A DNA stretch of 64,000 bases from an uncultured Gammaproteobacteria bacterium (GTDB lineage Bacteria > Patescibacteriota > Patescibacteriia > SBBC01 > CAIJZX01). Both the position numbers and the translations under genes were made by a program. Shown in pieces: positions 2,426 through 40,895 of this stretch (position 1 is its first letter; each line of letters begins with the position of its first letter). The stretch spans positions 54,597 through 118,596 of the forward strand of contig CAZFGG010000001.1 of the NCBI GenBank assembly GCA_964518425.1, written 5' to 3'. The notes beneath the pieces are model-generated. The model searched no databases, had not been told where the DNA came from, and saw only the letters and a list, made by a program, of their open reading frames with translations.

Positions 2426-2429
<4 letters not shown>

Positions 2430-20129: not shown

Positions 20130-23100
20130 ATGAAACGATTTCTTTCACGCTTGCGCCGAATCCCCCATCGCTGGGCGCTGTTGAGTAGCCTGGTTATCGT
20201 CGTAGTACTCATAGTTATTTGGCCGAGTCCGGCCCGGGCTGATGTTCAGCAGGTCATCTTCAGTGATATCTTAAGCCCGATCGTGACGGCCATGATCCGG
20301 CTCTTCGCCTTATTGACCGCCTACATCGTCGGACTCCTCATTCTCGTCGCCCAACAAAATAATTTCATCAATTCCGCGCCCGTCGTGACGGGCTACCCGA
20401 TCGTCCGCGACTTAGCGAACATGATCTTCATTATCGCTTTGTTGATTATTGCCGCCGGTACGATTCTACGCTTAGAGAATTACCGCTACAACCGCTTGCT
20501 CGGCCGGCTGATTGTCATGGCGTTCTTGGTCAACCTGGCGCGCTTCATTACCGGATTCTTCATTCAAACCTCGCAGGTGTTCATGCTGACGTTCGTCAAT
20601 GCGTTCAAAGACATCGCCCTTGGTAACTTTGCCAACATGTTCGGCTTAGATGTGGTCTTGAAATTCAGCCAACAGAACCCGACGGCGACAGATGCCTCGT
20701 TATTCATGACCTTGGTTGGCGGCCTGGCCATGATGATTATCGCCTTCTGTGTCATCTTAGCCGTTGTCGTCATCCTGATCGTCCGGATCGTGGCCTTATG
20801 GATATTGACCATCTTATCGCCGCTGGCCTACGCCTTACGCATTATCCCGAACACCGAACGGTATGCTTCCCAGTGGTGGAGCGAATTCGGAAAGTACGTC
20901 GTTTCCGGTCCGGTCCTGGCCTTCTTCCTCTGGCTGGCACTTGCCTTGAGCGCCGGTTCGGCCAACCAAAGTAGTGTCCTTTTCCAGAGCGTCAACGGCA
21001 CGAGCGGCGCGAATGCCAATCTCACGAATCAGGTCCAACAGCAACTCGCTCCGATTCAGAAGGATTTTGTCACGGAGATTTTCTCGATGCCCCGGCTGAT
21101 GACCTTCATCGTCTCGATCATTTTCCTGATGATGGGTATGCAGTACGCCAGTAAATCGGGCGGCGCGGGAGCCGGATTTGCGAAAAGAATATATGAGAAA
21201 GGACTTGGTGTCGGCGCGACGGCTACTGGGTTGAACGCTATCCGCAGCCAAATCAACGAACGAGCGGTTGCTCCGGTTCAAGGCTGGATTAAAAACCGTC
21301 AGGCGGCTCGGCAAGGGAGGATTCAGGAACGAACGGCGGCCCTCGAGTCGGCCGGCGCCCGTATTCGATCGCAGGCCCCGGTCATGCCCGGTATTCTTGG
21401 CCGCGAAGGCCGCGAACGGGCAGCCGCGAGTGCCCAGAATATTGAAGGACAACGGACCCAGCAATTCATCCAATCCCGCGGTTTACAGAATTTGCCGCAT
21501 GACGACGTTATGACTCGTTTCTTGACGACGACCGGTCGCGAACAATTAGCGGCCATGACGGTCTTAAAAGACCGCGGGCGGATTAATCTCCAAGACCCCA
21601 ACCAAGAAAAAGCCTTCAACCAGGCTATGGCCTGGAACCGTGTCCCAGAAGGCGATCGCCTAAAGATGCGTGAGGAGATTTTTCGATCCAATATGGGAGG
21701 TATGGATGAGAATAGTATTCGCGCCCGCCTGGGAGCTTCAACCGATCCGGAACAGCGGATCCAATTTGCTCAAGAGCTCCAGCGCCGGCAACTGTTAAAA
21801 GTAGGACGAGCCGAAGATGAACAAATTTCAGCCGGACTGCTGAACGATTTGGCGGCTAACCCGGAACGGTTGCAAGCTGCTCGTGAATCAATGATGAAAA
21901 CCAATCCGGACATGGCAAAAAAAGTCATCTTCGGGAGCCTAGCGGATTCATCAAGTCGGAGAGCGTTCTTGAGCGCCATTCAACAGAAGCAAATGAACCC
22001 GTCGGCTTTAAATCATGCAGTTCAAGATACTTTTGCCCGAGCGGGTGAAGCTGCCGCAATAGGTAATTTCCTGAATCAAATCAGCCCGGATGCAGAGACG
22101 CTGAATTCGTATAGACGTCAGATGGATCCAGAAGCGGCTCAGGAAATTTTCAGTCACCTCACGATTGCCGATGATGCTTCAGCTGAAGAACGGCAGAAAG
22201 TTGCCCGTGTAACAGGAGAATGGGGCAAGGCATTTACGCAATCCAATGGCACCTTCTTAACCGCAAAAAACTCTGATGGCACATCAAAGAAAAATTCTGA
22301 TGGAAGCGATGTCACACTTGCACAAGAGTTTGCCAGCAAACTAGGTGGAGAAGAAATCAGTAAGAATATTTCTCTGCAAGCTCTGAAAGATCAGAATGTC
22401 TTACAGTCCTTGAGACGATCAGATAATATGAAGGCCTCTCATTGGGAAGCCCTTCGCAAACGGAATAAGGAAACACGTGCGGCGCTTGAGGAAGGTTTGA
22501 AAGGTTATGCTGATCACCTGGGTGCCGAGGCTTATGATAAGCAAGGAAATATTATTCTGGATCTCGAGAAGCTCGGGGGGAATGAAGATCGCTTTAAAGA
22601 AAATGAATTTGTTGTTCGTAACTTGATGTTGGCTAGTAAAGGCAAAGAGAATCGGTACAACTTGGCTGATGAGAAAGCCCGCCAAGCGTTTGAGCGCTTA
22701 GTCAGCGGTGCCAGCGCTGCAGACTTAAGTGACATAACAAAGTCGCCAGTTTATGCGGCTCATACTGATACCGTTAATCTCCTCTTTGGTTGGAAGGGAA
22801 AGATGAACGAGGTAGCTGAAATGTTAACCGAAAACTATCAGTTTGCGGTGGACGCCATGAAAGAAACGGAAAAAACACTGACTGAAAAAATCAAAGCTGG
22901 CGGTCGAGAAGGAAGTATTGCCTACAACCGACTGAAAGAGATGTCCAAGCATCCAATTTTGAGTAATTATATTGCCTACCCTGAAAAGCCATCAGAAGGA
23001 GGAGGTAAGGGAGGTACGGCAGCGGCAGCTGCTGCTGGGGTAGCGGCGGGGGTAGCGGGTATGGCCGCTGCTGGTGGTATGGGAGGAAGTAGCCAGCCAG

Positions 23101-23720
23101 GACCCGAGTCTAGCGGTCCGAGTGGATCGACGCCCCCTCCACCGAATGGACCATCAGGCGGAGGAGCGGGGCGAGCTGGCCGCCGACCCTCTGGAGGAGG
23201 ATCTGGCCAAGCCTATCGGCAAGCTCAGCGAGCTCAACCCCCATCCCCGGGATCACCAATTGTTGTCCCAAGCGATGCGGATTTTCCATCCGATGAAGAA
23301 CGAAGCCGTGATCCTCGAATCGAACGACTCTCGCCAAAGCAAAAGGAACTTCGTAACAAAGTCGTTCAGCTCAGAGACGTTGTGGCCGGGGACAACGCGC
23401 TGACGTCGGATGATCGCCGCAACCTGAGAGAAGCTTTTGAAACAATCTTGAGTGAGCGCGATCAGGCACGGTTCCAAGCATTGATTCAATACGCTAACAA
23501 GGGCGGCAAACTCTCGGCTACAGAGAAGAAACAGTTTGAGGATCTTCTCGTAACCCTGGGGGCTGCTGATACGACGTATCAACAACCCGGCGCTGCTCGT
23601 AGTAGGAGCAGTAATCTAGGAGCTTCAACACCTTCCGAAAAAAGAACGATTCGTGATGCCGAGGCTGAAATTATTGAAGAGCCGCCAAGTCCTCCTCAAC
23701 AACCGAAGGAGAATTCATGA
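20130..23720 (+). CDS. Large polytopic membrane protein, VirB6/TrbL-like (Gram-positive PrgH/TcpH/ConG-type architecture) with long low-complexity C-terminal domain
   Basis: Starts 2 nt after upstream stop; about 8 predicted TM helices in first about 330 aa, followed by about 850-aa hydrophilic domain with coiled-coil, Gly/Ala-rich (GGGKGGTAAAAAAGVAAGVAG) and Pro-rich tracts. Homology call by architecture/genomic context only. Confidence 0.45.
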   Translation: MKRFLSRLRRIPHRWALLSSLVIVVVLIVIWPSPARADVQQVIFSDILSPIVTAMIRLFALLTAYIVGLLILVAQQNNFINSAPVVTGYPIVRDLANMIFIIALLIIAAGTILRLENYRYNRLLGRLIVMAFLVNLARFITGFFIQTSQVFMLTFVNAFKDIALGNFANMFGLDVVLKFSQQNPTATDASLFMTLVGGLAMMIIAFCVILAVVVILIVRIVALWILTILSPLAYALRIIPNTERYASQWWSEFGKYVVSGPVLAFFLWLALALSAGSANQSSVLFQSVNGTSGANANLTNQVQQQLAPIQKDFVTEIFSMPRLMTFIVSIIFLMMGMQYASKSGGAGAGFAKRIYEKGLGVGATATGLNAIRSQINERAVAPVQGWIKNRQAARQGRIQERTAALESAGARIRSQAPVMPGILGREGRERAAASAQNIEGQRTQQFIQSRGLQNLPHDDVMTRFLTTTGREQLAAMTVLKDRGRINLQDPNQEKAFNQAMAWNRVPEGDRLKMREEIFRSNMGGMDENSIRARLGASTDPEQRIQFAQELQRRQLLKVGRAEDEQISAGLLNDLAANPERLQAARESMMKTNPDMAKKVIFGSLADSSSRRAFLSAIQQKQMNPSALNHAVQDTFARAGEAAAIGNFLNQISPDAETLNSYRRQMDPEAAQEIFSHLTIADDASAEERQKVARVTGEWGKAFTQSNGTFLTAKNSDGTSKKNSDGSDVTLAQEFASKLGGEEISKNISLQALKDQNVLQSLRRSDNMKASHWEALRKRNKETRAALEEGLKGYADHLGAEAYDKQGNIILDLEKLGGNEDRFKENEFVVRNLMLASKGKENRYNLADEKARQAFERLVSGASAADLSDITKSPVYAAHTDTVNLLFGWKGKMNEVAEMLTENYQFAVDAMKETEKTLTEKIKAGGREGSIAYNRLKEMSKHPILSNYIAYPEKPSEGGGKGGTAAAAAAGVAAGVAGMAAAGGMGGSSQPGPESSGPSGSTPPPPNGPSGGGAGRAGRRPSGGGSGQAYRQAQRAQPPSPGSPIVVPSDADFPSDEERSRDPRIERLSPKQKELRNKVVQLRDVVAGDNALTSDDRRNLREAFETILSERDQARFQALIQYANKGGKLSATEKKQFEDLLVTLGAADTTYQQPGAARSRSSNLGASTPSEKRTIRDAEAEIIEEPPSPPQQPKENS

Positions 23721-24442
23721 CCCAGGATCCAAAGCTCTATCTCGAAGCCATAAAACGTCTTCCCCCATTGATGCGTCAGATTTTGAATAACGAAGCACTG
23801 GTCAGCCAAGCAATCACTCTTGGTGAAAAATACCATCTTTCACCTCAGCAAGAAACAGCCCTTATGGAGATTGAGCGAGAAGTCATTGCCCAAAATCTCA
23901 AAGTAATTGATATTGAAATGCGAATTCGAAACTCTCTACAAATTGATGCAACGTTGTCACAACAAATAGCTCGAGATTTCTTAGGAATGATCATTCTGCC
24001 GATGGAATGGTACCTTGGTCCAGTACAACCATTAATTCAGAAACTTGGGGGCCAGACTGAAATCTATTTCGATCAGGCCAAGAAAAATTTCCCGGAGATT
24101 TATCGTCAGTCTCCGACCAGCCAACCGATTCAAACTGAACAAGGTATTCTTTCAAAAGCTACTTCGACTATTTCTCCTGCTATCTTGGAAAACTTTGATG
24201 ACCGCCTGACCTCCTTTAAGGGCCGGGCCGAAGTTCTTCTGCGCTTGACCGGACTGTCGTCTCACTTGGAAGAGATGATGAAAAATAAGCAGGTCAGTAC
24301 GGAAGAAGGACAACAATTGATGCAGCAGCTCGACAGCATTTCCTACGCCGTCAACACCCAGGACCTCAACCAGTTCGAGGTTCAGTCAATCAAGCGTCAT
24401 TTGACGAAAGTTCTTGATCGGATCGGGCAGGCCCAAGCGTGA
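23717..24442 (+). CDS. Hypothetical cytoplasmic protein, translationally coupled to VirB6-like gene
   Basis: ATGA overlap at 23717-23720; 241 aa, no TM segments; no recognisable motif. Confidence 0.45.
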   Translation: MTQDPKLYLEAIKRLPPLMRQILNNEALVSQAITLGEKYHLSPQQETALMEIEREVIAQNLKVIDIEMRIRNSLQIDATLSQQIARDFLGMIILPMEWYLGPVQPLIQKLGGQTEIYFDQAKKNFPEIYRQSPTSQPIQTEQGILSKATSTISPAILENFDDRLTSFKGRAEVLLRLTGLSSHLEEMMKNKQVSTEEGQQLMQQLDSISYAVNTQDLNQFEVQSIKRHLTKVLDRIGQAQA

Positions 24443-24732
24443 TTCTACGATTGCCAGTAGTAACTCTTCAACCTCGGATGCTGATGCAGCGCGCCGGCTA
24501 CGTTGAGTTTCACGATCCGCGGAGTGGGGAAGTGTCCTATGTCCGTCGCCTCGGCACCCACTTCTACCCCCGGTTCCATGTGTACCTTGAATCGAAAACT
24601 GATCACCTCCGTTTGAACCTTCATTTGGATCAAAAACAACCGTCATACCCCGGCTTTACGAAGCATAGCGGTGAATACGATGGAATAACGGTTGAGGCCG
24701 AAGCTGAAAGGTTGAATAGGGCCTTAACTTAA
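24439..24732 (+). CDS. Small hypothetical protein (97 aa)
   Basis: 4-nt overlap with upstream stop; His/Arg-rich; no recognisable motif. Confidence 0.35.
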   Translation: MILRLPVVTLQPRMLMQRAGYVEFHDPRSGEVSYVRRLGTHFYPRFHVYLESKTDHLRLNLHLDQKQPSYPGFTKHSGEYDGITVEAEAERLNRALT

Positions 24733-24741
24733 ATCAAGGCT

Positions 24742-24775
24742 TGACAAATACCGTAGACTATGGTAGTCTCCGTGG
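24742..24775 (+). promoter_or_regulatory. Candidate promoter/operator: TTGACA followed by palindrome TAGACTA-TGG-TAGTCT
   Basis: TTGACA at 24742-24747; 7-bp inverted repeat tagacta/tagtct(c) with 3-bp spacer 17 nt downstream; sits in an unusual 186-bp gap inside an otherwise gap-free operon; strong SD AAGAAAGAGGTGA 6 nt before ATG 24919. Confidence 0.35.
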
Positions 24776-24918
24776 TTATTGTTGATACCTAAAGAGCTCT
24801 AGATGCTTTGGGGCCCTTTGAAAACTAAATAGGTTTCGAATCAAAGAAATCCGCGAGCCGCACAGACCGTGCGTCTCCTTGCGTTTGACCGCTCACCCCA
24901 AGAAAGAGGTGAACCAAA

Positions 24919-26010
24919 ATGGCTACCAAGGAGAAGAAAGGCTTACCCGAAGGATGGGAAGTCCCAATGGGAGCTGCCGCACAGGCCATCCTGAAGAGAA
25001 TCGTCAACGCCTCACTCGACTGGGTCGAGCGGGTCGATCGTGATCTCTTCTTGTCGGCCGCCTGGATCTACACTAACGAGTCAGCCGATAACATCAAGCT
25101 CTGGACTCAGGGTTCGTTTCTGGCGGGAGCGACGCTCCTCGAAAACATCGCCGACCATTTGCCAGTCTGGGAATGGATGCGGGAGGTGATCGAACGCGCC
25201 GGTCCCGACTTGCCGAACCTGGTCAGTCAGTACTTCAAGCTTCGTCAAGCACGCGGAACGCTCAACTTCCCGCCGGACTTCAAACCTCTGACGAGCGACG
25301 AAGCCAAGAAGAAATTGGCCCAGTTCGGAACAAAGGTCCAGGAAGCGTTCAGGGCAAGGTTGGAAAAATCCATACCGATCTTTGCGCGTCTTCGACAGCG
25401 CTGGGATGACCTGGTCGCCCGACTCAAGGGCGACGGCGAATTCCGGCACCATAGCTATAAAGCTTTCCGTCAAGCCTTTCTCGACGCCAATGATGAAGAA
25501 CGAGAACTGATCGTGGCCGCCTTCTGGGGCCCGCCCAACGCGGAAGAAGATCAACGGCTTCTTTCCGAACAGGAACTCTGGAACTTCAAGAAGGCTCACG
25601 AGTACTTCGGCGACAAGGAGAAGTTGGAGAAAATGGCCCGAATGAAACGGCGCCACCTTCGCTTCTTCCTGGCTATGGAAGATCAGGACGACTGGTTTAA
25701 TTTCCTGTCGCCTGATCTGAAAAAGAAATTCAAGGCCATCGTCACCGATGGCTATCAAACAACTGGTCACTTAGCCGACGACCTGGGCGGATGGAACGAC
25801 CGAATGGAACGGCGTTTGGACATCAGAAAGACCAATCAGCAGATTCAGCAAGGTGTTACCACGGGAATACTGCTGATGATCGGAGCAATCGCCTGTTTCA
25901 TGGGTGGCCGCCCCCTACCGGGCACCATCCTCTCGGTCGTCGTAGTCGCGATGGCCATATACTTCCTCTTGGCTCTGCGCAAGCAGCATAAGGAGACAGC
26001 CAATGGCTGA
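24919..26010 (+). CDS. Hypothetical protein, cytoplasmic domain with C-terminal double-TM anchor; first gene of a compositionally distinct 2-gene cassette
   Basis: 363 aa; strong SD; C-terminal hydrophobic stretch GVTTGILLMIGAIACFMGG...ILSVVVVAMAIYFLLAL; codon usage visibly shifted to AAG/GAG and C/G-ending codons relative to flanking genes. Confidence 0.55.
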   Translation: MATKEKKGLPEGWEVPMGAAAQAILKRIVNASLDWVERVDRDLFLSAAWIYTNESADNIKLWTQGSFLAGATLLENIADHLPVWEWMREVIERAGPDLPNLVSQYFKLRQARGTLNFPPDFKPLTSDEAKKKLAQFGTKVQEAFRARLEKSIPIFARLRQRWDDLVARLKGDGEFRHHSYKAFRQAFLDANDEERELIVAAFWGPPNAEEDQRLLSEQELWNFKKAHEYFGDKEKLEKMARMKRRHLRFFLAMEDQDDWFNFLSPDLKKKFKAIVTDGYQTTGHLADDLGGWNDRMERRLDIRKTNQQIQQGVTTGILLMIGAIACFMGGRPLPGTILSVVVVAMAIYFLLALRKQHKETANG

Positions 26011-27160
26011 CGAGAAGAAGCCGGAGGCCGCTGAGACGAAGGGTTCTTCAACCCATCGCGCTTGGTGGCAAGAAGTGCTGCTGAACATTCCGAAGGAACT
26101 CTATGGGTTCCTTAGCCTCGGACCGTTTGTACTCCTGATCTGGGGGATCTACCGTGACGAAAACGGTCGACGCCTGACAAAGGAGATGATCCGCAGCGGC
26201 AAGATCCTCTGGAAGTGGACGAACGAGGAATTCAACCGTTTGATCGGCGTGATCAACGTCGCGCTGCTGTTCATCGTCGCGATCAGCGGACTGCTTCTCT
26301 TCGGCATCTCGACCCCCAGTCAGTATTCATTCTGGGGAAGCGTCTGGCCCAACACCGTCCTTAACCGGACCTACCTCGGCTTGCCACTGATGCTGCTGGT
26401 GGTGTTCTGGATCGTCCAGATGATCTTCACCTTTTCCCGGCCGCTCATCGCGATCGGCTTGGCGGAGAAGTGGCTGACCAAGGACCGCAAGGACGAAGTC
26501 TTCGCCATTCGGTTCGTCCGGATGCAATTCAAGTTCGCGGGATGGTACGCCTTTGGGTTTACCGTTCTGAACGCGGTCACCTGGTACCACGAACCTGGCG
26601 CTCTGGCCATCGCGGTCCCGGGCTTACTCATCTACCCGCTGTTCTGCAATGCCTGGCGGCGTGGAGACTCGGAACATGTCCGGCGGACGGTCCTCATCGG
26701 GAACGCCTTCCTGGAAATGTGCTGCGTCATCTTCGCTTCTGTGCCGGGGTCATGGCATGGCCTGACGTCATTGGCCATCGGCGACAAAGTCATCGGTCCT
26801 TACGTCGCCCTGATCCTATTCTTCTCACTCGGCCTGCTGGCGGTTTCCCTCGGTCGAATCAAGACTGGGGAAGACAAAGCCCGCATCGCGAAAGCACAGT
26901 ATGACGAGCTCAAGGATGTTGACTTGGGTCGTGTAGCGGCCATCAAGTCATTGCTGAATGATGATTCCAAGTCAAACCGGACTGCCGCGTCACCAATGGG
27001 GTACTCGTACTCACAACCAGACACAGCCTGGGGGCGTCCGGTCCAGCCGCTCTCGCGCACCTCGGAGATTTTCCAGGCGATAATCGGCATCTTGCTTCTG
27101 TCCGCCGTCTTCATGGGTGCTGTCTACATGTTCAACCTGTACATGACCCGCAAGCCGTAA
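26003..27160 (+). CDS. Hypothetical polytopic membrane protein (about 8 TM), second gene of cassette
   Basis: 8-nt overlap (ATGGCTGA) with upstream gene; multiple hydrophobic helices; same AAG/GAG-rich codon usage; followed by a clear intrinsic terminator. Confidence 0.55.
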   Translation: MADEKKPEAAETKGSSTHRAWWQEVLLNIPKELYGFLSLGPFVLLIWGIYRDENGRRLTKEMIRSGKILWKWTNEEFNRLIGVINVALLFIVAISGLLLFGISTPSQYSFWGSVWPNTVLNRTYLGLPLMLLVVFWIVQMIFTFSRPLIAIGLAEKWLTKDRKDEVFAIRFVRMQFKFAGWYAFGFTVLNAVTWYHEPGALAIAVPGLLIYPLFCNAWRRGDSEHVRRTVLIGNAFLEMCCVIFASVPGSWHGLTSLAIGDKVIGPYVALILFFSLGLLAVSLGRIKTGEDKARIAKAQYDELKDVDLGRVAAIKSLLNDDSKSNRTAASPMGYSYSQPDTAWGRPVQPLSRTSEIFQAIIGILLLSAVFMGAVYMFNLYMTRKP

Positions 27161-27177
27161 CGCTCTTTCATTCTTTT

Positions 27178-27226
27178 GCCCAGTACCAATTCGCATTCGC
27201 GAAAAGGTACTGGGCATTTTCTTTTC
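27178..27226 (+). terminator. Rho-independent terminator
   Basis: GCCCAGTACC(27178-27187)...GGTACTGGGC(27206-27215) perfect 10-bp stem followed by ATTTTCTTTT. Confidence 0.7.
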
Positions 27227-27263
27227 CCCAGAAAACACAAAGAAAAACTGTTAATCAACCCTT

Positions 27264-27292
27264 TTGCTTGTTTGGCCGATTTGTGCTATAAT
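27264..27292 (+). promoter_or_regulatory. Sigma70-like promoter TTGCTT-17-TGcTATAAT (extended -10)
   Basis: TTGCTT 27264-27269, 17-nt spacer, TGC immediately 5' of TATAAT 27287-27292; 24 nt upstream of ATG 27316. Confidence 0.55.
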
Positions 27293-27315
27293 AAAGCCAC
27301 AAAAACAGACTGGAC

Positions 27316-28800
27316 ATGGAAGATATTTGGCAACAATTCCACCGTTTGCCGAAGACGATACGCGACTCCGTCGCTACGCCGGAAGCCTTGGCGACAGTGG
27401 ATCAACTTGAGCGCCAGCACCCAGGCCTTGATTTGGCTGGTTTTATCATGCGCGCCATGGTCAAGGAATTTCCTATCAATGAACTCAGTCAGAAGATGAG
27501 TCAGGAGGCTAAGCTCGATCAGCCAACCGCGGACGCGGTTACCCAAGAGTTAACGGCTAAGGTTTTTGGTCAACTCAGGGAATATCTTGGACTTCCGGCT
27601 AAGGTATCAGCACCAACAGTCATTCCGCCCACGCCACCACCGGCTCCGGTTCAACCTAAGACTGTTCCACCAATCCCGACAGCAGTACTAAGCCCGCTGG
27701 ATCAACCGAAAAAGGTCGTGCCAGCACCCCCAATCCAGCCGCTCGTTCCACTCGTCACGACCATGGCGGCTCCCCGGCCGGCCACGATGACGAATGTCGC
27801 CCCGACCCAAAATTACTCTGAAGATGATGACCAGGAGATTGCCCAGCAGGCCCGCCGCGTCAAAGATATCGCCGCCAGTTCAGAGACCATCGACCTTGAT
27901 ACGATCGTCGAACAAGTCATGCGCCAGCACAATTTGGCTTTCCGTGATGAGCTGCTGCAAAAGCGCGTCGTGTCCCTGTTGAAAGCTCGACTAAAAGGTA
28001 TCCGCGATTCTGATGACACGAAAGCGATGCTCATGCGGACACCGAAAGTCGGTGGCCTCGGCCTCGATCCAGATGTATCAGCCAACGTTGTGACGAGTCT
28101 TGACCAGGCGGCTGGACGTTTGAAAACGCGGGGCGCAGTTACCCCGCCACTACCAATCGCCCCGCCGCCTCCGCCGGTGGTTCCCCGCATTGAGCCAGAG
28201 CGTCCTGCTCCGAAACCGCCCCTGACGCGAGGCCTACCGCCAGAGAACCTACCGCTGGCGGCCAGCACGCCGCTCCCGAACGTGACCGATCAGCCGCGGC
28301 CGGCCCCGCTCCTGAAACGGCCGGCTGATATTCCCGCGCCGCCCCCAATAGCTGCAGGTCCCGCTCCGTTTGCCCCCAGCCCCCGACCGACCGCTCCGGC
28401 GAACCGACCGCTCATCACCCGGGAACGGTTGCCAGAACGACAAAACATTTCCGATATTACCCGCCCGAATATTCCGGTCATGGGGCCGGCTGGTGAAATG
28501 AGTAGTTTAACCCTGATGGAATTCCGTCGTCTTGGCCAGGGGGCATCCGACTCAGCCAATCGTTTACTCGAAAAATTCAAGCACTACCAAAAAGAATCCT
28601 TTCCGCTCTGGGCCGAAGCGATCGCTGGCTGGCGGCAAAGCGAAGTCCATCGGATCTATCTTGACATGGGCCGACAAAGCCTTGACCAGGGCACGCCGAT
28701 TACGCAAGTCATTCAACAACGGGCCAAGTCCGGCTTGCCATATTTATCCGAACACGAATTCGCTATTGTCTCGGATCTCAACCGTCAGCTCCAACTCTAA
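27316..28800 (+). CDS. Proline-rich hypothetical protein (494 aa)
   Basis: Long PPxP/PxP-rich central region (TPPPAPVQPKTVPPIPT..., PPLPIAPPPPPVVPRIEPERPAPKPP), structured N- and C-terminal domains; first gene after promoter; antisense Gly/Arg-rich ORFs are mirror artefacts. Confidence 0.55.
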   Translation: MEDIWQQFHRLPKTIRDSVATPEALATVDQLERQHPGLDLAGFIMRAMVKEFPINELSQKMSQEAKLDQPTADAVTQELTAKVFGQLREYLGLPAKVSAPTVIPPTPPPAPVQPKTVPPIPTAVLSPLDQPKKVVPAPPIQPLVPLVTTMAAPRPATMTNVAPTQNYSEDDDQEIAQQARRVKDIAASSETIDLDTIVEQVMRQHNLAFRDELLQKRVVSLLKARLKGIRDSDDTKAMLMRTPKVGGLGLDPDVSANVVTSLDQAAGRLKTRGAVTPPLPIAPPPPPVVPRIEPERPAPKPPLTRGLPPENLPLAASTPLPNVTDQPRPAPLLKRPADIPAPPPIAAGPAPFAPSPRPTAPANRPLITRERLPERQNISDITRPNIPVMGPAGEMSSLTLMEFRRLGQGASDSANRLLEKFKHYQKESFPLWAEAIAGWRQSEVHRIYLDMGRQSLDQGTPITQVIQQRAKSGLPYLSEHEFAIVSDLNRQLQL

Positions 28801-28803
28801 GCT

Positions 28804-29283: not shown

Positions 29284-29286
29284 ATC

Positions 29287-30028
29287 TATGGCCACGACCT
29301 CTGCCAAAAATAAGAATCTGGTTCGGAAAAAAACGGGTATCTCTACCCAGCAGTACTTAGATATTTTAGAAATTCGTGACGACGCCGTCATTTTGAAGAA
29401 CGGAACGATCTTAGCGGTGATTCTCGTGGCCTCGATCAATTTCTCGCTCAAATCGGACGAAGAACAAGACGCGGTTATCGAAGCCTACGTTTCGTTCCTC
29501 AACACCATCGATTTCCCCCTGGAAATCGTCATTCAATCGCGTCGCTTGAACATCGATGAGTATTTGGAAATGCTCAAGAAAGTCGAGAAGCAGCAGACGA
29601 ACGAACTGCTCCAGATTCAAACCCGGGAATACCGTCAATATGTGGCCGAACTTGTCCAAATCGCTGACATCATGACCAAGCGGTTCTATGTCGTCGTTCC
29701 CTTTTCATCGAAAGTTGATCGCCCCGGGAAATTCTTTAGCCGATTAGCCGATATTCTCAATCCTACATCGACTATCCATCTCAAGCAGAAACAGTTTGAA
29801 CAATACCGTCTAGAATTGTACAAGCGAGTGGATAACGTTTCGAACGCCTTAGCTTCAGCCGGATTGAAATCGGCGGTCTTGGACACCCAAAGCCTGATCG
29901 AACTGTACTATAATTCCTATAATCCCGAGACGGCCCGCCAACAACAAGTCGCCGATGTCGATAAACTGAGCCTGGAAGACGTTTCCAGTATTAAAGAAGA
30001 TGTCCCGGGTAAAGAAAAACGAACCTAA
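29287..30028 (+). CDS. Hypothetical soluble protein between VirB3-like and VirB4-like genes; weak resemblance to VirB4 N-terminal-domain pattern
   Basis: 247 aa from ATG 29287 (MATTSAKNKNLVRKK...); segment DILEIRDDAVILKNGTILAVILVASINFSLKSDEEQDAVIEAYVSFLNTIDFPLEIVIQSRR resembles CagE/TrbE/VirB4 N-domain consensus; no Walker motifs. Confidence 0.35.
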
Positions 30029-30039
30029 TCTCGAACGGA

Positions 30040-31962
30040 ATGCCTGATATTAACCTCTCCAGTCCAAAAATTTTCCGCGACCAGCCTTCTCCGGCCACGC
30101 GAGAATTACCGCGGGCCCCATCCGACGAACGTGAACTGATCGAAGCCGAACGGATTTACCGCCAAGGAGTTGTTACGGTTCGCGACTTAATCGCGCCGGC
30201 CGCTCTGAAGATTGACGCTCGGTACCTTCAGTTGAATGGGCAATTCGTCCGGACGCTGTTTGTTATTAGCTATCCTCGCTACATTTCCGTTGGGTGGTTC
30301 GGGCCGATCATCAATTACAACGCCCCGCTCGACATTTCTATGTTCTTTTACCCCATCCCCTCGGATGTTATTTTGAAGCAATTGCGGAACAAGGTTGGGG
30401 CTTTAGAAGCCCAGCTCTTGGCTGATAGCGAAAAAGGTGCGCCGCGCGACCCTGTTCGGGAAACAGCGCTCCGAGACATCGAGAAACTTCGGGACGACTT
30501 AACACAAGGCACTGAACGTTTTTTCCAGTTCGCCTTGTATGTCACGCTCTACGCGCCGTCGGCAAAAGCCCTTGATGATTTGACAAGCAAAGCCGAAGCT
30601 ATCTTCGGTTCACGTTTAGTCTTTACGAAACGAGCCTTTTTCCAGGCTGAACAAGGATTCACGTCAACCCTGCCGCTTGGCCTTGACCAGCTTCAGGTGA
30701 CGTTCAACATGAATTCGTCACCGATTGCTTCGAGCTTCCCGTTCGTCTCGGCCGATCTCTCGAGTGACAGCGGTATCCTCTACGGCATCAACCGGCACAA
30801 CAATTCGCTCATCCTGTTTGACCGGTTCGGCCTACAAAACCCTAACTACACGGTCTTTGCGACGGCTGGATCTGGTAAATCGTATGCCGTGAAATTAGAG
30901 GTTTTACGGTCAATGATGTTCGGAACGGACATTATTATCGTTGATCCGGAGCACGAGTATAAATACCTGTCTGATGCTGTTGGCGGAACCTACATTAATA
31001 TCTCCCTCAATTCCCAGACAAAAATTAATCCGTTCGATCTGCCCCGCCAGGCAAGCGGCGATGAAACCACGGCCGACATTATTCGTTCAGCCGTCATCAC
31101 CCTCAAATCTATGTTCCGGTTGATGCTGGGCGATGTCACTCATGAGGAAGATTCCATTATTGACCGCGCTCTGCTTGAAACCTACGCCAAGAAAGACATT
31201 ACGCCTGACGCCGATTTAGCCAACGTCGTTCCGCCGGTCATGACTGATTTCGAAGAAGTTTTGTCCGGCATGACCGGCGCCGAAGGGCTCGTTGAACGGT
31301 TGAAAAAATATACCCAAGGCACCTTTGCCGGACTTTTCAATTCACCGACCAACATTGAATTGAATAATCAACTGGTCGTTTTCTCTGTCCGTGATCTCGA
31401 AGACGAACTTCGACCGATCGGTATTTCGATTATTATCTCGTACGTCTGGAATATTGCTCGCTCGAAACTGAAGCGGCGTATGCTCGTGATTGATGAAGCC
31501 TGGTGGTTGATGCAGCACGAAGACTCGGCTAAATTTATCTACGGCCTGGTTAAGCGCTCACGGAAATACTACCTGGGTGTGACGACGATTACCCAGGACG
31601 TCAACGACTTCCTCCTCTCGCCATATGGCCAAGCGATTATCAATAACTCAGCCTTAGCGCTCTTGATGAAGCAGTCGCCGGCAGCCATTGATATCGTGAC
31701 GAAAACGTTCCTCCTGACCCAACAGGAACGTTACCTTCTGCTCGAGGCCGGTGTTGGCGAGGGCATTTTCTTCGCTGGCACGAAACATGCAGCGATCAAG
31801 GTGGTCGCATCATACGCGGAAGACCAAATCGTTACGACCAATCCGCAACAGTTACTGGAAATAGAAAAAGCCAAAAAAGAGTTTGAGCAGTCCGTGGCGG
31901 CCGGTACAGCCACGAACGCCGGTACGGCCATTCGCTCGCCCGAGGAATTGAACAGCCTGTAA
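30040..31962 (+). CDS. virB4: VirB4/TraC/PrgJ-like T4SS ATPase
   Basis: 640 aa; N-terminal Gram-positive VirB4 pattern (YLQLNGQFVRTLFVISYPRYISVGWFGPIINYNAPLDISMFFYPI); Walker A FATAGSGKSYAV (about 30853-30888); VirB4-typical Walker B hhhhDEAW (MLVIDEAWWLM, about 31480-31512). Confidence 0.8.
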   Translation: MPDINLSSPKIFRDQPSPATRELPRAPSDERELIEAERIYRQGVVTVRDLIAPAALKIDARYLQLNGQFVRTLFVISYPRYISVGWFGPIINYNAPLDISMFFYPIPSDVILKQLRNKVGALEAQLLADSEKGAPRDPVRETALRDIEKLRDDLTQGTERFFQFALYVTLYAPSAKALDDLTSKAEAIFGSRLVFTKRAFFQAEQGFTSTLPLGLDQLQVTFNMNSSPIASSFPFVSADLSSDSGILYGINRHNNSLILFDRFGLQNPNYTVFATAGSGKSYAVKLEVLRSMMFGTDIIIVDPEHEYKYLSDAVGGTYINISLNSQTKINPFDLPRQASGDETTADIIRSAVITLKSMFRLMLGDVTHEEDSIIDRALLETYAKKDITPDADLANVVPPVMTDFEEVLSGMTGAEGLVERLKKYTQGTFAGLFNSPTNIELNNQLVVFSVRDLEDELRPIGISIIISYVWNIARSKLKRRMLVIDEAWWLMQHEDSAKFIYGLVKRSRKYYLGVTTITQDVNDFLLSPYGQAIINNSALALLMKQSPAAIDIVTKTFLLTQQERYLLLEAGVGEGIFFAGTKHAAIKVVASYAEDQIVTTNPQQLLEIEKAKKEFEQSVAAGTATNAGTAIRSPEELNSL

Positions 31963-31965
31963 TTT

Positions 31966-32526
31966 ATGTCCCGCCGCCTCATTATCATCATCAGCGCCTC
32001 TGTCATTTTGATCGTCCCAGCGATCGTCATTATCTTATTGGTCAATAGAAATCCGAAACTGCAAAACACCATTCTGAAAGTGGCAAACATCAATCAGGCC
32101 GTGACGAACACTACGACCACAAACACCAATACCCCGGCCAACGCCTTAGCCAAAGACCGCGAGGCGGCCGTCTTCGTGGCCCGCTCGTTTGCTGAGCGAT
32201 TTGGCAGCGGCTCAAATCAGAACAACTTTTCCAATCTCATTCTGGCCGAGACCTACGGAACAAAGAGTTTTAATGACAGTCTGAATCGGAGCATTGCCCA
32301 ACAAAAACTCACCCTCAAGACCACGCCGTTTCAATCGACCATCACCAAAGCCATGAGTATTTCTGTCGGCAGCTTCACGACCACCAGCGGGCACCTGACC
32401 GTCACGGCTCAGCGCCAAGAGACCATTGATCGAGCGGTGCGCGTCTACTATCAAGATCTGATTCTCGAGATGTTGAAAGTTGGAGCTGACTGGAAAGTCA
32501 ACGCCGCCAGCTGGAAGGTTTCCTGA
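31966..32526 (+). CDS. Bitopic membrane protein, possibly VirB8-like (N-terminal TM + about 150-aa extracytoplasmic domain)
   Basis: MSRRLIIIISASVILIVPAIVIILLVNRN anchor then soluble domain; position right after VirB4; call based on topology/context only. Confidence 0.3.
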   Translation: MSRRLIIIISASVILIVPAIVIILLVNRNPKLQNTILKVANINQAVTNTTTTNTNTPANALAKDREAAVFVARSFAERFGSGSNQNNFSNLILAETYGTKSFNDSLNRSIAQQKLTLKTTPFQSTITKAMSISVGSFTTTSGHLTVTAQRQETIDRAVRVYYQDLILEMLKVGADWKVNAASWKVS

Positions 32527-32529
32527 TTC

Positions 32530-33198
32530 ATGGCCGATCTTGACCAAGCCACTCTCGATAGCCCCGAACTCCAGCAGCAGGCTGCTCGGGAACTCCGTCG
32601 ACAACAGTTCGCCGAACTGAAAACTGGCCGTTTACCAACGGCAAAAGCGACGACTGAGGAAAATACTTTTGGCCGACCGGAGTACGTCAAACAAGCTGAC
32701 CGACAAGCGCGATTACAGGGCCTACGTTCAGCACGAAAAACAATAGAACGAGTAGGATCAACCACGCCGGGAGAAGAGCTTCAAGCCCAACTATCATCGG
32801 TTGCCCTTCAAGCCTATACCCGTCTATGGCAGCAAGGCCATGAACTGGTCGAAGGCCTGGCCTTCCAATTCTTCATGGTCGGCGCGTTTCTCGTGGCGCC
32901 AATCGCCGACCTCATGTTTGGTGCCCGGTTGCTCATCGGTAAAGCTATGAACGGCGGTTTTCAGATTGAGTTCCAAGGAATTTCCGTACCGGCCGTCCCG
33001 GATATCAGTGCTGTTGAATCAGCCTACCGTGGCGGAAAGTTAATATTTATCTCTTTGATCGGTCTTCTGGAATGGGCGATTATCGTCGTGACCATCCAAA
33101 TCGTGACCCATCCGACGGACGCCATAAAACTTGGCTTTCAGGCCATTGTTCAAGCTCTCGGTTTAGCCGGTTCAACGACTCCATCTTCCGGCCAATGA
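32530..33198 (+). CDS. Hypothetical membrane protein (hydrophilic N-terminus, hydrophobic C-terminal half)
   Basis: 222 aa; C-terminal TM helices (FQFFMVGAFLVAPIADLMF..., LIFISLIGLLEWAIIVVTIQIV). Confidence 0.4.
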   Translation: MADLDQATLDSPELQQQAARELRRQQFAELKTGRLPTAKATTEENTFGRPEYVKQADRQARLQGLRSARKTIERVGSTTPGEELQAQLSSVALQAYTRLWQQGHELVEGLAFQFFMVGAFLVAPIADLMFGARLLIGKAMNGGFQIEFQGISVPAVPDISAVESAYRGGKLIFISLIGLLEWAIIVVTIQIVTHPTDAIKLGFQAIVQALGLAGSTTPSSGQ

Positions 33199-34160
33199 TC
33201 CTTCGTCGCGCCATCATTCTGATCCTTCTTGGCTTGGCTTTCTTCACGCACCCAGTTCGAGCCGCCAACGTTATCACTGACCCGCTTCAAGCCGCCCAAA
33301 AACCAATTACCATTACTCCCGAGGTCCCTATTCCCGGGGTCTACACCGGTCAGCAAACAATTGATAATAATGGTATTGCTCGCTACATCCGAGCGATCTA
33401 CGTCTATTTTATTTGGACGGTTGGTATCCTCGCCGTGGTGATGATTATGTTCGGTGGCATCAGCTGGATCGCCGCCGCCGGTAATGCTGGTCGGATCAAT
33501 GATGCTCGTGAGACGATTAATAACGCCATCATTGGGTTGATTATTGCCCTGACCTCGTACGCCTTACTCTACGTCATCAATCCGGAGTTGTTAAATCTGT
33601 CTTTGCCCCCGGTCGGTTCGCTGACGAATGAATCCATTGCTGGTCTGCCGATTGTCGACTTTTGTGATCCGGCGAATCACCTTGATTGCGGGTCTGTTGG
33701 TAAGCTGGGAAGCGCATTTGATAAGAATGGCAAGGCCGTTGATGTTTTTTGCGCCGGGACCATCTGCCCGAGTGACAGCCTCTGTCAACTCAACCAGGCA
33801 GCGGTTCCCGTTGCCGATCAGTTGACGACGAGTAAGACCGGATTTTCGACGACGTATACAAGTTACTATCCCGCCGTCGGATGCCAAAAAACCGTCCAGG
33901 TGGATAATCCAGCCGGAATATACACGACCTCCGGTCCGCTGAAGGTGGCCTTCGATACAACCTTTAACCTAACGACATTCGGGGGCAGCTTAAACTGTGG
34001 CCGGGCCTATGGTAATATCGATATTCTGGGGAATAATTGTGACACCTCCGACGCCGCGCTCAATACGAAGAGCATTTGTATCATGATTGGCGCGAAGGCT
34101 AAGCTGCAAACAACAACCGGCAACAATGATAAGGTATCGAATACCCAGTGCACCCCCTAA
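33195..34160 (+). CDS. Pilin-like (VirB2/TrbC-like fold) N-terminal module fused to Cys-rich C-terminal domain
   Basis: ATG 33195 overlapping upstream stop; signal peptide MILRRAIILILLGLAFFTHPVRA; two hydrophobic helices separated by basic loop (ARYIRAIYVYFIWTVGILAVVMIMFGGISWIAAAGNAGRINDARETINNAIIGLIIALTSYALLYVINP); about 60% identical over this module to ORF 35426. Confidence 0.5.
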   Translation: MILRRAIILILLGLAFFTHPVRAANVITDPLQAAQKPITITPEVPIPGVYTGQQTIDNNGIARYIRAIYVYFIWTVGILAVVMIMFGGISWIAAAGNAGRINDARETINNAIIGLIIALTSYALLYVINPELLNLSLPPVGSLTNESIAGLPIVDFCDPANHLDCGSVGKLGSAFDKNGKAVDVFCAGTICPSDSLCQLNQAAVPVADQLTTSKTGFSTTYTSYYPAVGCQKTVQVDNPAGIYTTSGPLKVAFDTTFNLTTFGGSLNCGRAYGNIDILGNNCDTSDAALNTKSICIMIGAKAKLQTTTGNNDKVSNTQCTP

Positions 34161-34176
34161 ATAACCGCTTTCCCTC

Positions 34177-35424
34177 ATGAACCCTAACCTCCGCCGCTTA
34201 CTGCTCATCGCCGGCTTCGCCCTAGTCACGGTTGGCTGGTTCTTCGCGATTTACTTCATTTTCTTCCGGCCGTCCGCCCCGATTGCTCGAAACAACGCCA
34301 ACGGGTTTGTGAATGGTCTTCCCGTGCCGACGAACGGGAACGTCAACCGGGTCGTTCTGCCCGGGAATGTTAATGCTCTACCGAACATCAACGGTACTAT
34401 TGCTGGCCCGAGTCTCGTCGCGAATGGGGGAGCCACCATCACAGAAACGATTACCAGTCAATCAACCAGCGCCCTAACCTCGACGGCCGATCACTTAGCT
34501 TTGCAGTACTATGATCGGCAAACCGGTCAGCTCTATACTCTCTCCTCCGATGGAACACAACGGACTTTGCTGACCTCGGATACCTATCCCGGCGCCCAAT
34601 CGATCAGCTGGTCACCCGACGGTCACCAAGCCATTCTGACCTTCCCCGATGGATCGAAAATTCTCTATGACTTTACCCTGAAAAAGCAAATTACCCTTCC
34701 GAAGGAACTGAATGATTTTTCCTTCTCTCCGCAATCTGATCAAATCGTTTCAAAATATCTTGATCCAACAAACCAGGATAACCAATGGTTGGTCATCAGC
34801 CAACCCGACGGATCACAGTCAGTCAGCGTTGAGCAGCTAGGCGCTAATGCCGGCGCGGTGACGCCCGACTGGTCGCCGAATAATCAAATCGTCGCGACCT
34901 ACGAAAAATCAACGAACGCCGACCAGTCAGATATTTTCTTCCTGGGCAACCAAGGCCAAAACTTCCCCTCCGTTTCGGTTCAAGGACGCGGTTTTACCCC
35001 GAATTGGTCGCCCGATGGTCGACGCCTGTTATTCAGTACCTACAGCACCTTAACTGATGATAATCCCCATCTTTTTATTATGACCGGCAGTCCGGATCAG
35101 CTCGGGGCCAGCCAAATTGATCTGGGCCTCGACACGCGAGCTGATAAATGCACTTTTTCACAGAACGGCTTCAATATTTACTGTGCCGTTCCTTACTACC
35201 TCAATCCGGGATCAGGGCCGCAGCCGGGCCTGTCAGCCAATATTCCGGATAATATTTATAAAATTGACTTGCTGACCGGGAACTCAACCCTCGTCGCTCG
35301 CCCGGTTGACCAGCAGAATAGCCAACGGTTCAGCGCGACGAACCTCCAACTCTCGGCGGCCGAAGATTCGCTCTTCTTTACTGACAACCAGACCGGCTCG
35401 ATTCAGCGAATCCGTTTGCGGTAG
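34177..35424 (+). CDS. Membrane-anchored TolB-like beta-propeller protein (PD40/WD40-like WSPDG repeats)
   Basis: N-terminal TM (LLLIAGFALVTVGWFFAIYFIFF); repeated ...SWSPDGHQAIL..., ...DWSPNNQIVA..., ...NWSPDGRRLLFS... blades typical of TolB C-terminal domain. Confidence 0.55.
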   Translation: MNPNLRRLLLIAGFALVTVGWFFAIYFIFFRPSAPIARNNANGFVNGLPVPTNGNVNRVVLPGNVNALPNINGTIAGPSLVANGGATITETITSQSTSALTSTADHLALQYYDRQTGQLYTLSSDGTQRTLLTSDTYPGAQSISWSPDGHQAILTFPDGSKILYDFTLKKQITLPKELNDFSFSPQSDQIVSKYLDPTNQDNQWLVISQPDGSQSVSVEQLGANAGAVTPDWSPNNQIVATYEKSTNADQSDIFFLGNQGQNFPSVSVQGRGFTPNWSPDGRRLLFSTYSTLTDDNPHLFIMTGSPDQLGASQIDLGLDTRADKCTFSQNGFNIYCAVPYYLNPGSGPQPGLSANIPDNIYKIDLLTGNSTLVARPVDQQNSQRFSATNLQLSAAEDSLFFTDNQTGSIQRIRLR

Positions 35425-35425
35425 T

Positions 35426-36601
35426 ATGATCGAGCGTCGTCATCGGTTTTCTCTCCTGGTCGGCTTGGTTCTGGCGGTCTTCGTTTTCCTGGTCTCACCG
35501 GTCAAGGCCGCCAATGTATTCACTGACCCGGGGAATGCGGCCAGCAAGCCGATCACGTTTACTCCGGAAATCGTCATTCCGACATTCAGCGGAAATGGGG
35601 AAATTACCGTCACCGGCCAAACGATTGCTAACTACATTCGAGCTATTTTCGTGTACTTTATCTGGATCGTTGGTATTCTGGCCGTCGTTATGGTGACGTA
35701 TGGCGGCATTCGCTGGGTTGGTGCGGCCGGTAATCCGGGTCGGATCAACGACGCCCGGTCAATCGTCAACAATTCTTTGATCGGCCTGATCATCGCCCTG
35801 ACCTCAGTCGTCCTGCTGAATACGATCAATCCAGACCTAACGAAGTTTCAAGGCATCACGATCGCCTCGGTGTCGCAAGAACAGCTCGATTTTTTGAAAG
35901 ACATTAAGACCAGCGCCGGTCCGTTCTCACAATGTTCAAATACCAAAGTTGCGGGTCAACCGAGTCAAGTCTGCAGTGGGCCAACCGTTGGGGCCGGCCC
36001 GAACGGTGACGTGACCGCCGGCTGTCTTGACCTCAATGCCTTGGTCAATAAGTCGGCCTTCGGTCAACTCGATCCCTTTGCCATTAAGGCCATCACCATG
36101 ATCGAAAGTCCGAAACAGAATGGGCAACCATTTTCTGGTCCGAACCCGAGTTCTGCCTCGTCGGCGTACGGCGTTGGACAGTTCTTAGAGCCGACCCTCA
36201 AGCAGGTTTTGGCTCATGTGAATAATGGTGGTTTACCGCCCGGCTGTCGCGACAACGAAATTTTGGCTCCCGATGGTTTTCACGTTAGTCAAGCCTGTAA
36301 AGCCTGGCTCGATAAACGGACCGGCGGAGCGCTCGGATCGGGAGTATCGGGCCTGGAAGCCCAGATCGGCATGATCGCCAGTTACTTTGGGCAACAGCTT
36401 AACGATCAAAAGTGCGTCAAAGGCGATTATGAACTTGCCGCGGCGGCCTACAACCAAGGCTTAGGCGGAGCTTCAGACGCCTTCTGTTCAACTAGCTACC
36501 TCCGTGATCCCAACAAGAAAGCTCAAGTCAAAGCCGACGCGCTCGATTATATTGCTAAATTCAAGCAATATTACGCCCAGGCCTGCAGCAGTGGTCAGTA
36601 G
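35426..36601 (+). CDS. Pilin-like N-terminal module fused to a lytic transglycosylase (SLT/VirB1-like) domain
   Basis: ATG 35426 2 nt after upstream stop; N-terminal 150 aa paralogous to ORF 33195 (ANYIRAIFVYFIWIVGILAVVMVTYGGIRWVGAAGNPGRINDARSIVNNSLIGLIIALTS); C-terminal SLT motifs: ...MIESPKQNG (catalytic E-S), ...AYGVGQF (GLMQ-like), ...AAAYNQGLGG (AYNAG-like). Confidence 0.6.
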   Translation: MIERRHRFSLLVGLVLAVFVFLVSPVKAANVFTDPGNAASKPITFTPEIVIPTFSGNGEITVTGQTIANYIRAIFVYFIWIVGILAVVMVTYGGIRWVGAAGNPGRINDARSIVNNSLIGLIIALTSVVLLNTINPDLTKFQGITIASVSQEQLDFLKDIKTSAGPFSQCSNTKVAGQPSQVCSGPTVGAGPNGDVTAGCLDLNALVNKSAFGQLDPFAIKAITMIESPKQNGQPFSGPNPSSASSAYGVGQFLEPTLKQVLAHVNNGGLPPGCRDNEILAPDGFHVSQACKAWLDKRTGGALGSGVSGLEAQIGMIASYFGQQLNDQKCVKGDYELAAAAYNQGLGGASDAFCSTSYLRDPNKKAQVKADALDYIAKFKQYYAQACSSGQ

Positions 36602-39491: not shown

Positions 39492-39509
39492 GTCAAAGAA
39501 AAGAATATC

Positions 39510-40867: not shown

Positions 40868-40895
40868 GATTCTTGAAAGTTCAAAATCTTTCTAT

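Follow-up and report, generated by a model that had tools for sequence, protein, structure and literature searches.

We interpret a gene cluster in the 64-kb stretch of DNA analyzed here (contig CAZFGG010000001.1 of assembly GCA_964518425.1, positions 54,597 to 118,596 of the forward strand; hereafter the window, whose own numbering is used throughout) as a chromosomal type IV secretion system (T4SS) of Patescibacteria, in the version known from class ABY1. The system extends from about position 5193 to 36601, with an additional pilin gene at 38715-39047, is of MPF-FATA/CD1110 ancestry, and is not a mobile element; we place the probability of this reading at roughly 0.88. An earlier note on this window had described a minimal, Gram-positive-type T4SS-like locus between positions 20130 and 36601, put to chromosomal and non-conjugative use. 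The type and the use are both upheld by the evidence presented below; the left edge was drawn too narrowly, as both gene packing and synteny with a metagenome contig (L083) indicate that the cluster begins at about 5193, and "minimal" is a poor description of a co-directional block of about 31 kb and 19 genes. Within this block (5193-36601), 16 of the 18 gene junctions either overlap or span no more than 16 nucleotides (nt), and the only two long intergenic gaps (186 and 155 nt) lie on either side of the two open reading frames (ORFs) at 24919-27160. The features of the cluster and its surroundings are collected in Table 1.

Every core part of the translocon is supported by a profile or by its fold. 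The earlier note had named a VirB6/TrbL-like protein at 20130, a PrgI/VirB3-like protein with two membrane helices at 28804, a VirB4-like ATPase with a DEAW Walker B motif at 30040, and a possible VirB8-like bitopic protein at 31966, and all four assignments were borne out. For comparison, we assembled 80 related loci from a scan of species-representative genomes, of which 77 carry PrgI, which in the window passes the Pfam cut-off and has two hydrophobic helices. The ATG of the next gene (29288), which the earlier note had overlooked and which is present in all 80 loci, lies 4 nt past the PrgI stop codon; its TrsD-like product scores 26 bits against the TrsD model and matches VirB4_CagE over positions 6-163, in addition to the VirB4_plasma match given in Table 1. 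The VirB4 that follows exceeds the cut-off of the conju_CD1110 model, matches Pfam P-loop_TraG (E 2e-30), and has an intact Walker A (ATAGSGKS) and Walker B motif (MLVIDEAW). It matches the CD1110 model from position 177 onward and thus lacks the N-terminal ~176 model positions; as the TrsD-like protein matches the VirB4 N-terminal part, we conclude that the N-terminal domain of VirB4 is encoded here by a separate gene. The nearest plasmid-encoded VirB4 proteins are of the CD1110 type, come from Firmicutes and Actinobacteria, and share at most 35% identity with it, in keeping with the Gram-positive type proposed in the earlier note.

Direct Pfam and NCBIfam scans returned nothing for the ORFs at 20130, 31966, and 32530, for those from 23717 to 28800, or for the C-terminus of the protein at 35426, and these were resolved through sets of homologues and structure models where possible. 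By this route the protein at 20130 is an extended VirB6, the membrane domain of which is followed by a hydrophilic tail of about 800-850 residues with Gly/Ala/Pro-rich stretches; only the N-terminal ~400 residues gave a detectable match in most related loci. The ORF at 31966 shows the combination that marks the VirB8 family, namely an N-terminal membrane helix and an NTF2-like (VirB8) fold in a protein encoded within a T4SS cluster, and a VirB8-like gene is found in 69 of the 80 loci.

The order of these core genes is conserved across related genomes, recurring in 80 Patescibacteria genomes, which answers the synteny check that had been proposed for the locus. Taking into account only those loci with sufficient flanking sequence (47 upstream, where at least 9 kb was needed for the third giant protein and VirB6, and 38 downstream), g27316, PrgI, and TrsD stand alongside VirB4 in 47/47 loci, the VirB8-like gene is found in 38/38, VirB6 in 35/47, and the pilin, propeller, and second pilin genes each in 18-19 of 38. 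The closest arrangement is that of L083, with a VirB4 84% identical to that of the window, where the gene order of the whole 31 kb, from the TSP3 protein to the pilins, is kept (giant1, giant2, giant3, VirB6, g23717, g24439, g27316, PrgI, TrsD, VirB4, VirB8-like, g32530, pilin, propeller). In a distant relative (L081, VirB4 53% identical), the order is KsgA, TSP3 protein, a 634-residue protein, TrbL/VirB6, PrgI, a TraC-like protein, and VirB4, with a pilin and a propeller gene further downstream. A scan of metagenomes with the VirB6 protein by itself recovered 3 loci. Neither of the two ORFs at 24919-27160 has a homologue among the 80 loci or in L083, and in L083 the genes that flank this position abut directly, such that these ORFs are best explained as an insertion specific to this genome. 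Just 3' of the two ORFs, the sequence at 27177-27216 forms a hairpin whose arms are 18 nt long.

Three genes of the window exceed the cut-off of the Pfam T4SS_pilin model (PF18895, 26.6 bits), among them both of the ORFs (33195 and 35426) that the earlier note had described as VirB2/TrbC-like pilin-fold proteins; the third, the small pilin beyond RecG, had been overlooked. The proteins at 33195 and 35426 are 55% identical over their first 154 residues only and have unrelated C-terminal domains, which suggests a common membrane module for the display of different extracellular domains. The claim that one of them carries a VirB1-like lytic transglycosylase also stands, on the evidence of its family. 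The family of this C-terminal domain is very small (17 cluster representatives in a set of 1.84 billion proteins), and the pilin module is common to the 18 members that were aligned. Pfam SLT is matched by 11 of the 18 (best E 1.5e-7), with the window protein itself below the Pfam threshold, and the best PDB match of an 18-sequence profile is a goose-type lysozyme (E 4.4e-5), with the catalytic Glu inside the aligned stretch. Residues E227, G249, Q252, Y342, and G345 are invariant in the 18 sequences and correspond to the ES (catalytic Glu), GxxQ, and AYNxG motifs of family 1 lytic transglycosylases. We note that a phmmer search of the PDB with the SLT-like domain by itself found no match, and that a 6-sequence profile reached only E 0.26. 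Taken together, the protein at 35426 is a probable VirB1 equivalent, as judged from its sequence motifs.

In a related Kerfeldbacteria genome (L001, 15433-18453), the homologue of this pilin-transglycosylase protein is 1006 residues long and has a beta-helix and Big_7 domains N-terminal to the pilin module, which indicates that the module accepts fusions on both sides. The TolB-like beta-propeller noted earlier at 34177 was likewise recovered, from PD40 and partial TolB propeller matches; in about 20 loci its gene lies between or beside those for pilins, and L081 still retains it.

Table 1. Features of the T4SS cluster and of its immediate surroundings in the window (aa, amino acids).
Feature	Coordinates	Strand	Basis or remark
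TSP3-repeat protein, one membrane helix	5193..5969	+	Pfam TSP3_bac 43 bits
Giant secreted protein 1 (giant1), 1878 aa, 83 Cys, N-terminal signal/anchor	5973..11609	+	
Giant secreted protein 2 (giant2), 1383 aa; Big_7, Ig-like, and BNR-like domains	11606..15757	+	Pfam
Giant secreted protein 3 (giant3), 1454 aa, 63 Cys, N-terminal FN3 domain	15764..20128	+	
Extended VirB6/TrbL-like polytopic membrane protein	20130..23720	+	~340-aa membrane domain, long hydrophilic tail
Soluble protein (g23717), 241 aa	23717..24442	+	Close relatives only
Small protein (g24439), 97 aa	24439..24732	+	Conserved in close relatives (8 loci, 52-73% identity)
Two membrane-protein ORFs, 363 and 385 aa	24919..27160	+	No homologues in relatives
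Conserved soluble protein (g27316), three helical modules, proline-rich linkers	27316..28800	+	Always just 5' of PrgI
PrgI/VirB3-like protein, two membrane helices	28804..29283	+	Pfam PrgI 38.3 bits, cut-off 27
TrsD-like protein	29288..30028	+	NCBIfam VirB4_plasma positions 93-284, E 3e-11
VirB4-type ATPase, CD1110 family	30040..31962	+	NCBIfam conju_CD1110 353 bits, cut-off 325
VirB8-like bitopic protein: one membrane helix, linker, NTF2-like domain	31966..32526	+	
Fast-evolving protein (g32530), charged N-terminus, two C-terminal membrane helices	32530..33198	+	
VirB2-type pilin module (signal peptide and two helices) with Cys-rich C-terminal domain	33195..34160	+	Pfam T4SS_pilin 30 bits
Membrane-anchored (N-terminal) TolB/PD40-like beta-propeller	34177..35424	+	PD40 just over cut-off; partial TolB propeller E 2e-10
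VirB2-type pilin module fused to putative lytic transglycosylase (SLT/goose-lysozyme-like) domain	35426..36601	+	T4SS_pilin 37 bits
RecG helicase	36602..38659	-	Pfam; convergent with the cluster
Stand-alone VirB2/TrbC-type pilin, 110 aa, beyond RecG	38715..39047	-	T4SS_pilin 33.7 bits; TrbC E 5e-4 (weak)
ComF-like phosphoribosyltransferase	45216..45884	-	Pfam Pribosyltran

The accessory genes of the cluster are conserved to very different degrees. The TSP3 protein is separated from KsgA by a gap of 179 nt, the genes after it are tightly packed, and the order KsgA, TSP3 protein, a further gene, and VirB6 is also found in L081; it is probably the first gene of the cluster. The association of the locus with giant surface proteins, which had been put forward in the earlier note, is supported by a giant3 homologue immediately 5' of VirB6, always on the same strand, in 21 of the 47 loci with at least 9 kb of upstream sequence, and by the synteny of all three giants in L083. 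There, the counterpart of giant3 is 42% identical, the full length of giant2 (which has 19 Cys residues) is 30% identical to a syntenic ORF of 1394 residues, and the C-terminus of giant1 is 55% identical to its syntenic ORF. Giant3 is not homologous to the 634-residue protein at the same position in L081, and a metagenome scan with giant2 found no close relatives.

Downstream of VirB6, g23717 is found at the same position in 7 loci as well as in L083 and in a further locus (L085), at 36-46% identity, and homologues of g32530 are detectable in 4 loci and L083 only. The most widely kept accessory gene, also overlooked in the earlier note, is g27316 (71/80 loci), the product of which has no membrane helix. 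A 21-sequence profile of g27316 brought up nothing meaningful in Pfam or the PDB, the best PDB match being a succinyltransferase (E 0.015) aligned within the proline-rich part.

The chromosomal setting of the cluster is supported by its housekeeping flanks and by its even base composition. To the left lie the genes for leucyl-tRNA synthetase (LeuRS), Sua5, an MFS transporter, and KsgA, and to the right those for RecG, three tRNAs, the ComF-like phosphoribosyltransferase, a Clp ATPase, HtpX, and LemA, while G+C varies only between 0.49 and 0.56 across the window, with no compositional island. RecG beside the cluster is a context typical of class ABY1, and it lies within 10 kb in 23 of the 38 loci with enough downstream sequence. 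The ComF-like gene, which in the window is found 8.6 kb beyond the end of the cluster, is present in 17 of the same 38 loci; across the related loci, ComF homologues occur shortly 3' of the VirB8-like gene in 35, at a median of about 2.5 kb from the start of VirB4.

In a database search, the closest relatives of the window VirB4 are 85-93% identical and, where named, are listed as Candidatus Kerfeldbacteria or Patescibacteria group; among the best 120 matches (71-93% identical), the named ones are Patescibacteria, Kerfeldbacteria, or Parcubacteria. The informative titles among the 80 related loci are likewise all Kerfeld-, Falkow-, or Uhrbacteria or Parcubacteria/Patescibacteria. On the basis of these VirB4 relatives and names, we assign the window to the chromosome of an ultrasmall bacterium of the Patescibacteria (candidate phyla radiation, CPR). 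The Kerfeld-, Falkow-, and Uhrbacteria lineages we take to belong to the GTDB class ABY1. We note that many public records of metagenome-assembled genomes with a locus of this Patescibacteria type (L006, L007, L013, L016, and others) are titled "uncultured Gammaproteobacteria bacterium", which looks like systematic mislabeling.

Among the large ORFs of the 64-kb window, none has a match to a relaxase, to a coupling protein of the VirD4/TcpA kind, or to an integrase, and the region from 5000 to 39500 contains only short, chance-level repeats, with no long direct or inverted repeat and nothing like an oriT repeat. The statement that relaxase, integrase, and oriT-like repeat are missing from these 64 kb thus agrees with both the profile and the repeat searches. 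The companion statement that there is no coupling protein holds within the same 64 kb and does not extend to the wider genome. The window therefore shows none of the hallmarks of an integrative conjugative element (ICE), be it relaxase or oriT, type IV coupling protein (T4CP), or integrase and attachment-site repeats, nor is the block variably present among relatives, recurring as it does in the 80 related loci. Together with the housekeeping flanks, the even G+C, and the gene order conserved in 80 genomes, this bears out the proposal that the machinery is chromosomal and non-conjugative in use.

As a novelty, the proposal does not hold, since it has been published both for Saccharibacteria (PMC10633639) and for the whole phylum (PMC12102498). 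Wang et al. (Cell, 2023; PMC10633639) described the T4SS of the Saccharibacterium Southlakia epibionticum as essential and as resembling Gram-positive conjugation systems, with pilins present and without a recognizable coupling protein or relaxase, and suggested protein export or another role; the requirement for epibiotic growth was established by transposon sequencing (Tn-seq), in that organism only. Quinonero-Coronel et al. (Microbial Genomics, 2025; PMC12102498) surveyed 3,035 Patescibacteria genomes and found a monophyletic Patescibacteria VirB4 clade nested in MPF-FATA, with genes for TrsD, PrgI/VirB3, VirB6, and VirB2-like pilins adjoining virB4, VirB8 homologues (about 50 reported) almost exclusively in class ABY1, and only 109 relaxases in all genomes combined. 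In the same survey, the ABY1 neighborhood includes comF, recG, and radA, and ksgA is often found near virB4 across classes. A 2025 review gives the same picture and notes "extended VirB6" proteins (PMC12857230), which the VirB6-like protein of the window resembles. Because this kind of system has already been published, including for class ABY1, the locus is to be regarded as a well-resolved example and not as a discovery.

Measured against these descriptions, the window shows what defines the T4SS of the Patescibacteria clade, namely VirB4 kinship (judged here from identity and profile, and not from a tree), adjacent TrsD and PrgI/VirB3 genes, VirB6, and pilins. The likeness to the published ABY1 arrangement (PMC12102498) extends to VirB8, to the chromosomal location without a nearby relaxase or T4CP, and to recG, comF, and ksgA, all of them close by and within the 64 kb. 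However, the propeller between the pilins, the pilin-SLT fusion, the giants upstream of VirB6, and g27316 are not mentioned in that survey, and a VirB8-like gene is present in 69/80 of our loci as compared to the ~50 homologues reported there. The T4SS of S. epibionticum ML1 (SEML1_0006-0019) similarly combines Gram-positive-like subunits with pilins, has no recognizable relaxase or coupling protein in the cluster, and has been interpreted as non-conjugative; it differs in belonging to Saccharimonadia, in having six small pilins where the window has two large pilin fusions and one small pilin, and in that no structural homologue of VirB8 was found there.

Among systems from outside the phylum, the locus can be compared with the MPF-FATA systems of Firmicutes (CTn2/CD1110 of Clostridioides difficile, pCF10 Prg, and pIP501 Tra), with which it has in common a CD1110-type VirB4, PrgI, TrsD, and a VirB6-like protein, as well as a VirB8-fold protein (PrgL, TraM, and TcpC in those systems) and a membrane-anchored cell-wall hydrolase. 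In contrast to them, its VirB4 is at most 35% identical, it has VirB2-type pilins, which the Gram-positive systems do not, it lacks a relaxase, T4CP, PrgB-type adhesin, and oriT, and it lies outside any mobile element. It also differs from the MPF-T systems (R388 Trw and Agrobacterium VirB), in that the window has no VirB7, VirB9, VirB10 outer-membrane core, VirB5, or VirB11, and in that large extracellular domains are fused to its pilin modules. What the locus adds to the published picture is modest: a VirB8-like gene that is near-universal among the related loci, a pilin-propeller cassette, the pilin-transglycosylase fusion, the conserved giants, and g27316.

With respect to assembly, substrate, and direction of transport, we infer from the established knowledge of VirB-type systems. 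The VirB4 ATPase, with its separately encoded TrsD-like N-terminal domain, and the VirB3-like PrgI would dock on a membrane platform in which the extended VirB6-like protein serves as the channel and the VirB8-like protein as the scaffold, all in a single membrane. From this membrane, VirB4 would pull the VirB2-type pilin modules to build a tube or pilus, with the peptidoglycan opened locally by the pilin-anchored transglycosylase domain, and the anchored TolB-like propeller and the giant Cys-rich proteins may span the wall or make contact with the host. If the Saccharibacteria system is taken as a guide, the most likely function of the machine is to exchange macromolecules with a host bacterium upon contact, which could take the form of effector export or of import of host nucleic acids or proteins. 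In a 2024 perspective, the role of these T4SSs is called "completely unknown", with effector delivery or nucleic-acid uptake mentioned (PMC11665869), and a 2026 preprint describes tubular structures, possibly T4SS pili, at a parasite-host contact (bioRxiv 10.64898/2026.06.21.733656). It is also possible, although we put this forward tentatively and with some doubt, that the TSP3 protein, up to three giants, g27316, the propeller, and the pilin fusions are true parts of the apparatus, forming a host-contact and wall-crossing structure without counterpart in known Gram-positive or Gram-negative T4SSs. Within such an apparatus, g27316 might substitute for the coupling protein as a substrate receptor.

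Several points weigh against this interpretation of the cluster and should be set beside it. A distant VirD4-like coupling protein, or a relaxase, may lie beyond the 64 kb, and VirD4 homologues were reported in 2,918 of the 3,035 Patescibacteria genomes surveyed, mostly far from virB4 (PMC12102498). The function is carried over from Saccharimonadia, which is another class than ABY1, and the roles given to the giants, the propeller, g27316, and the VirB6 tail are read from conserved position only.

Of the alternatives, the one that survives best, and that we nevertheless consider improbable, is that the cluster is specifically a device for importing DNA or RNA, working with ComF and RecG in the manner of Helicobacter pylori ComB or the archaeal Ced system and feeding a cell that is unable to make nucleotides. 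This is a narrower version of the explanation given above and does not contradict it. It draws on the convergent RecG gene at the end of the cluster and the ComF-like gene beyond it, on the recurrence of both in related loci (ComF near the VirB8-like gene in 35 and RecG within 10 kb in 23/38, as described above), and on weak matches of VirB4 to the CedB and CedD models; in addition, uptake has been proposed for these systems (PMC11665869), as has feeding on host RNA (bioRxiv 10.64898/2026.06.21.733656). However, deletion of comEC in S. epibionticum abolished competence and not viability, while the T4SS was still essential (PMC12857230), no DNA-binding or nuclease component was recognized in the cluster, and the linkage to ComF and RecG could be passive synteny.

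A distinctly less probable alternative is that the cluster builds a surface filament or adhesion organelle only, from pilins and giants, and transports no substrate. Three pilin-domain genes, a predicted wall-cutting enzyme, and three giant secreted proteins would suit such an organelle, as would the absence from the window of a coupling protein, the usual recruiter of substrates. Against this, a complete VirB3/4/6/8 translocon has been kept, the phylum already has type IV pili (PilM at 62588) for adhesion and motility, and some T4SSs secrete without a coupling protein, for example Ptl and Brucella VirB. Finally, a decayed or cryptic ICE, with its relaxase, coupling protein, and integrase lost or beyond the window, is suggested by a VirB4 family named for conjugative elements (conju_CD1110), by a tRNA-Arg gene with partial tRNA copies 2.6 kb downstream, and by a search for mobility genes that covers the 64 kb only, but we regard it as very improbable, given that the core order, often with RecG and ComF, recurs in Kerfeld-, Falkow-, and Uhrbacteria with VirB4 proteins 66-86% identical, that the window shows no G+C anomaly, long direct or inverted repeats, integrase, relaxase, or T4CP, and that only 109 relaxases were found across 3,035 Patescibacteria genomes (PMC12102498).

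We made several further observations in the remainder of the window. The tRNA-Arg gene (39235-39312) has one arm of a perfect 16-nt inverted repeat on each side (39219-39234 and 39310-39325), and partial copies of the gene lie nearby, corresponding to the 5' part (39183-39209) and, with an insertion, to the 3' part (39437-39499); no integrase is found near the gene and its copies, and the ICE reading that this arrangement had prompted was rejected on the basis of synteny, composition, and this absence. An ORF at 40892-41212 (- strand) that seemed conserved by tblastn is spurious, its apparent conservation being due to the two tRNA-Ser genes (40896-40985 and 41012-41105) with which it overlaps. 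Inserted into the LeuRS at 3-2429 (+ strand), after the CP1 editing domain and before the second half of the catalytic domain, is a NUDIX hydrolase domain that is complete (Pfam, 57 bits; Nudix box GGVDDGEDIIKAAEREVREETG). The reading frame of this gene is open from base 3, so that it extends past the left end of the window, and a split LeuRS was ruled out. Between 50585 and 62457 (+ strand) lies a run of co-directional large ORFs without family matches (291, 528, 301, 315, 452, and 1410 residues), and one of the proteins encoded there has a pretoxin-HINT domain (54767-56857), pointing to a locus for polymorphic toxins or surface proteins. At the right edge is a gene for the type IV pilus assembly protein PilM (62588-63652, + strand; E 8e-45), and a type IV pilus locus probably starts there.

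The T4SSs of Patescibacteria are among the few machines that have been tied to the host-dependent lifestyle of this very large and mostly uncultivated radiation. The locus described here adds no new principle to what is known of them; it is a clean example from a Kerfeldbacteria-like lineage. It does draw attention to conserved accessory genes that published surveys have left unannotated, namely the giants, the propeller, the pilin-transglycosylase fusion, and g27316, and these genes could direct structural or genetic work on such systems.

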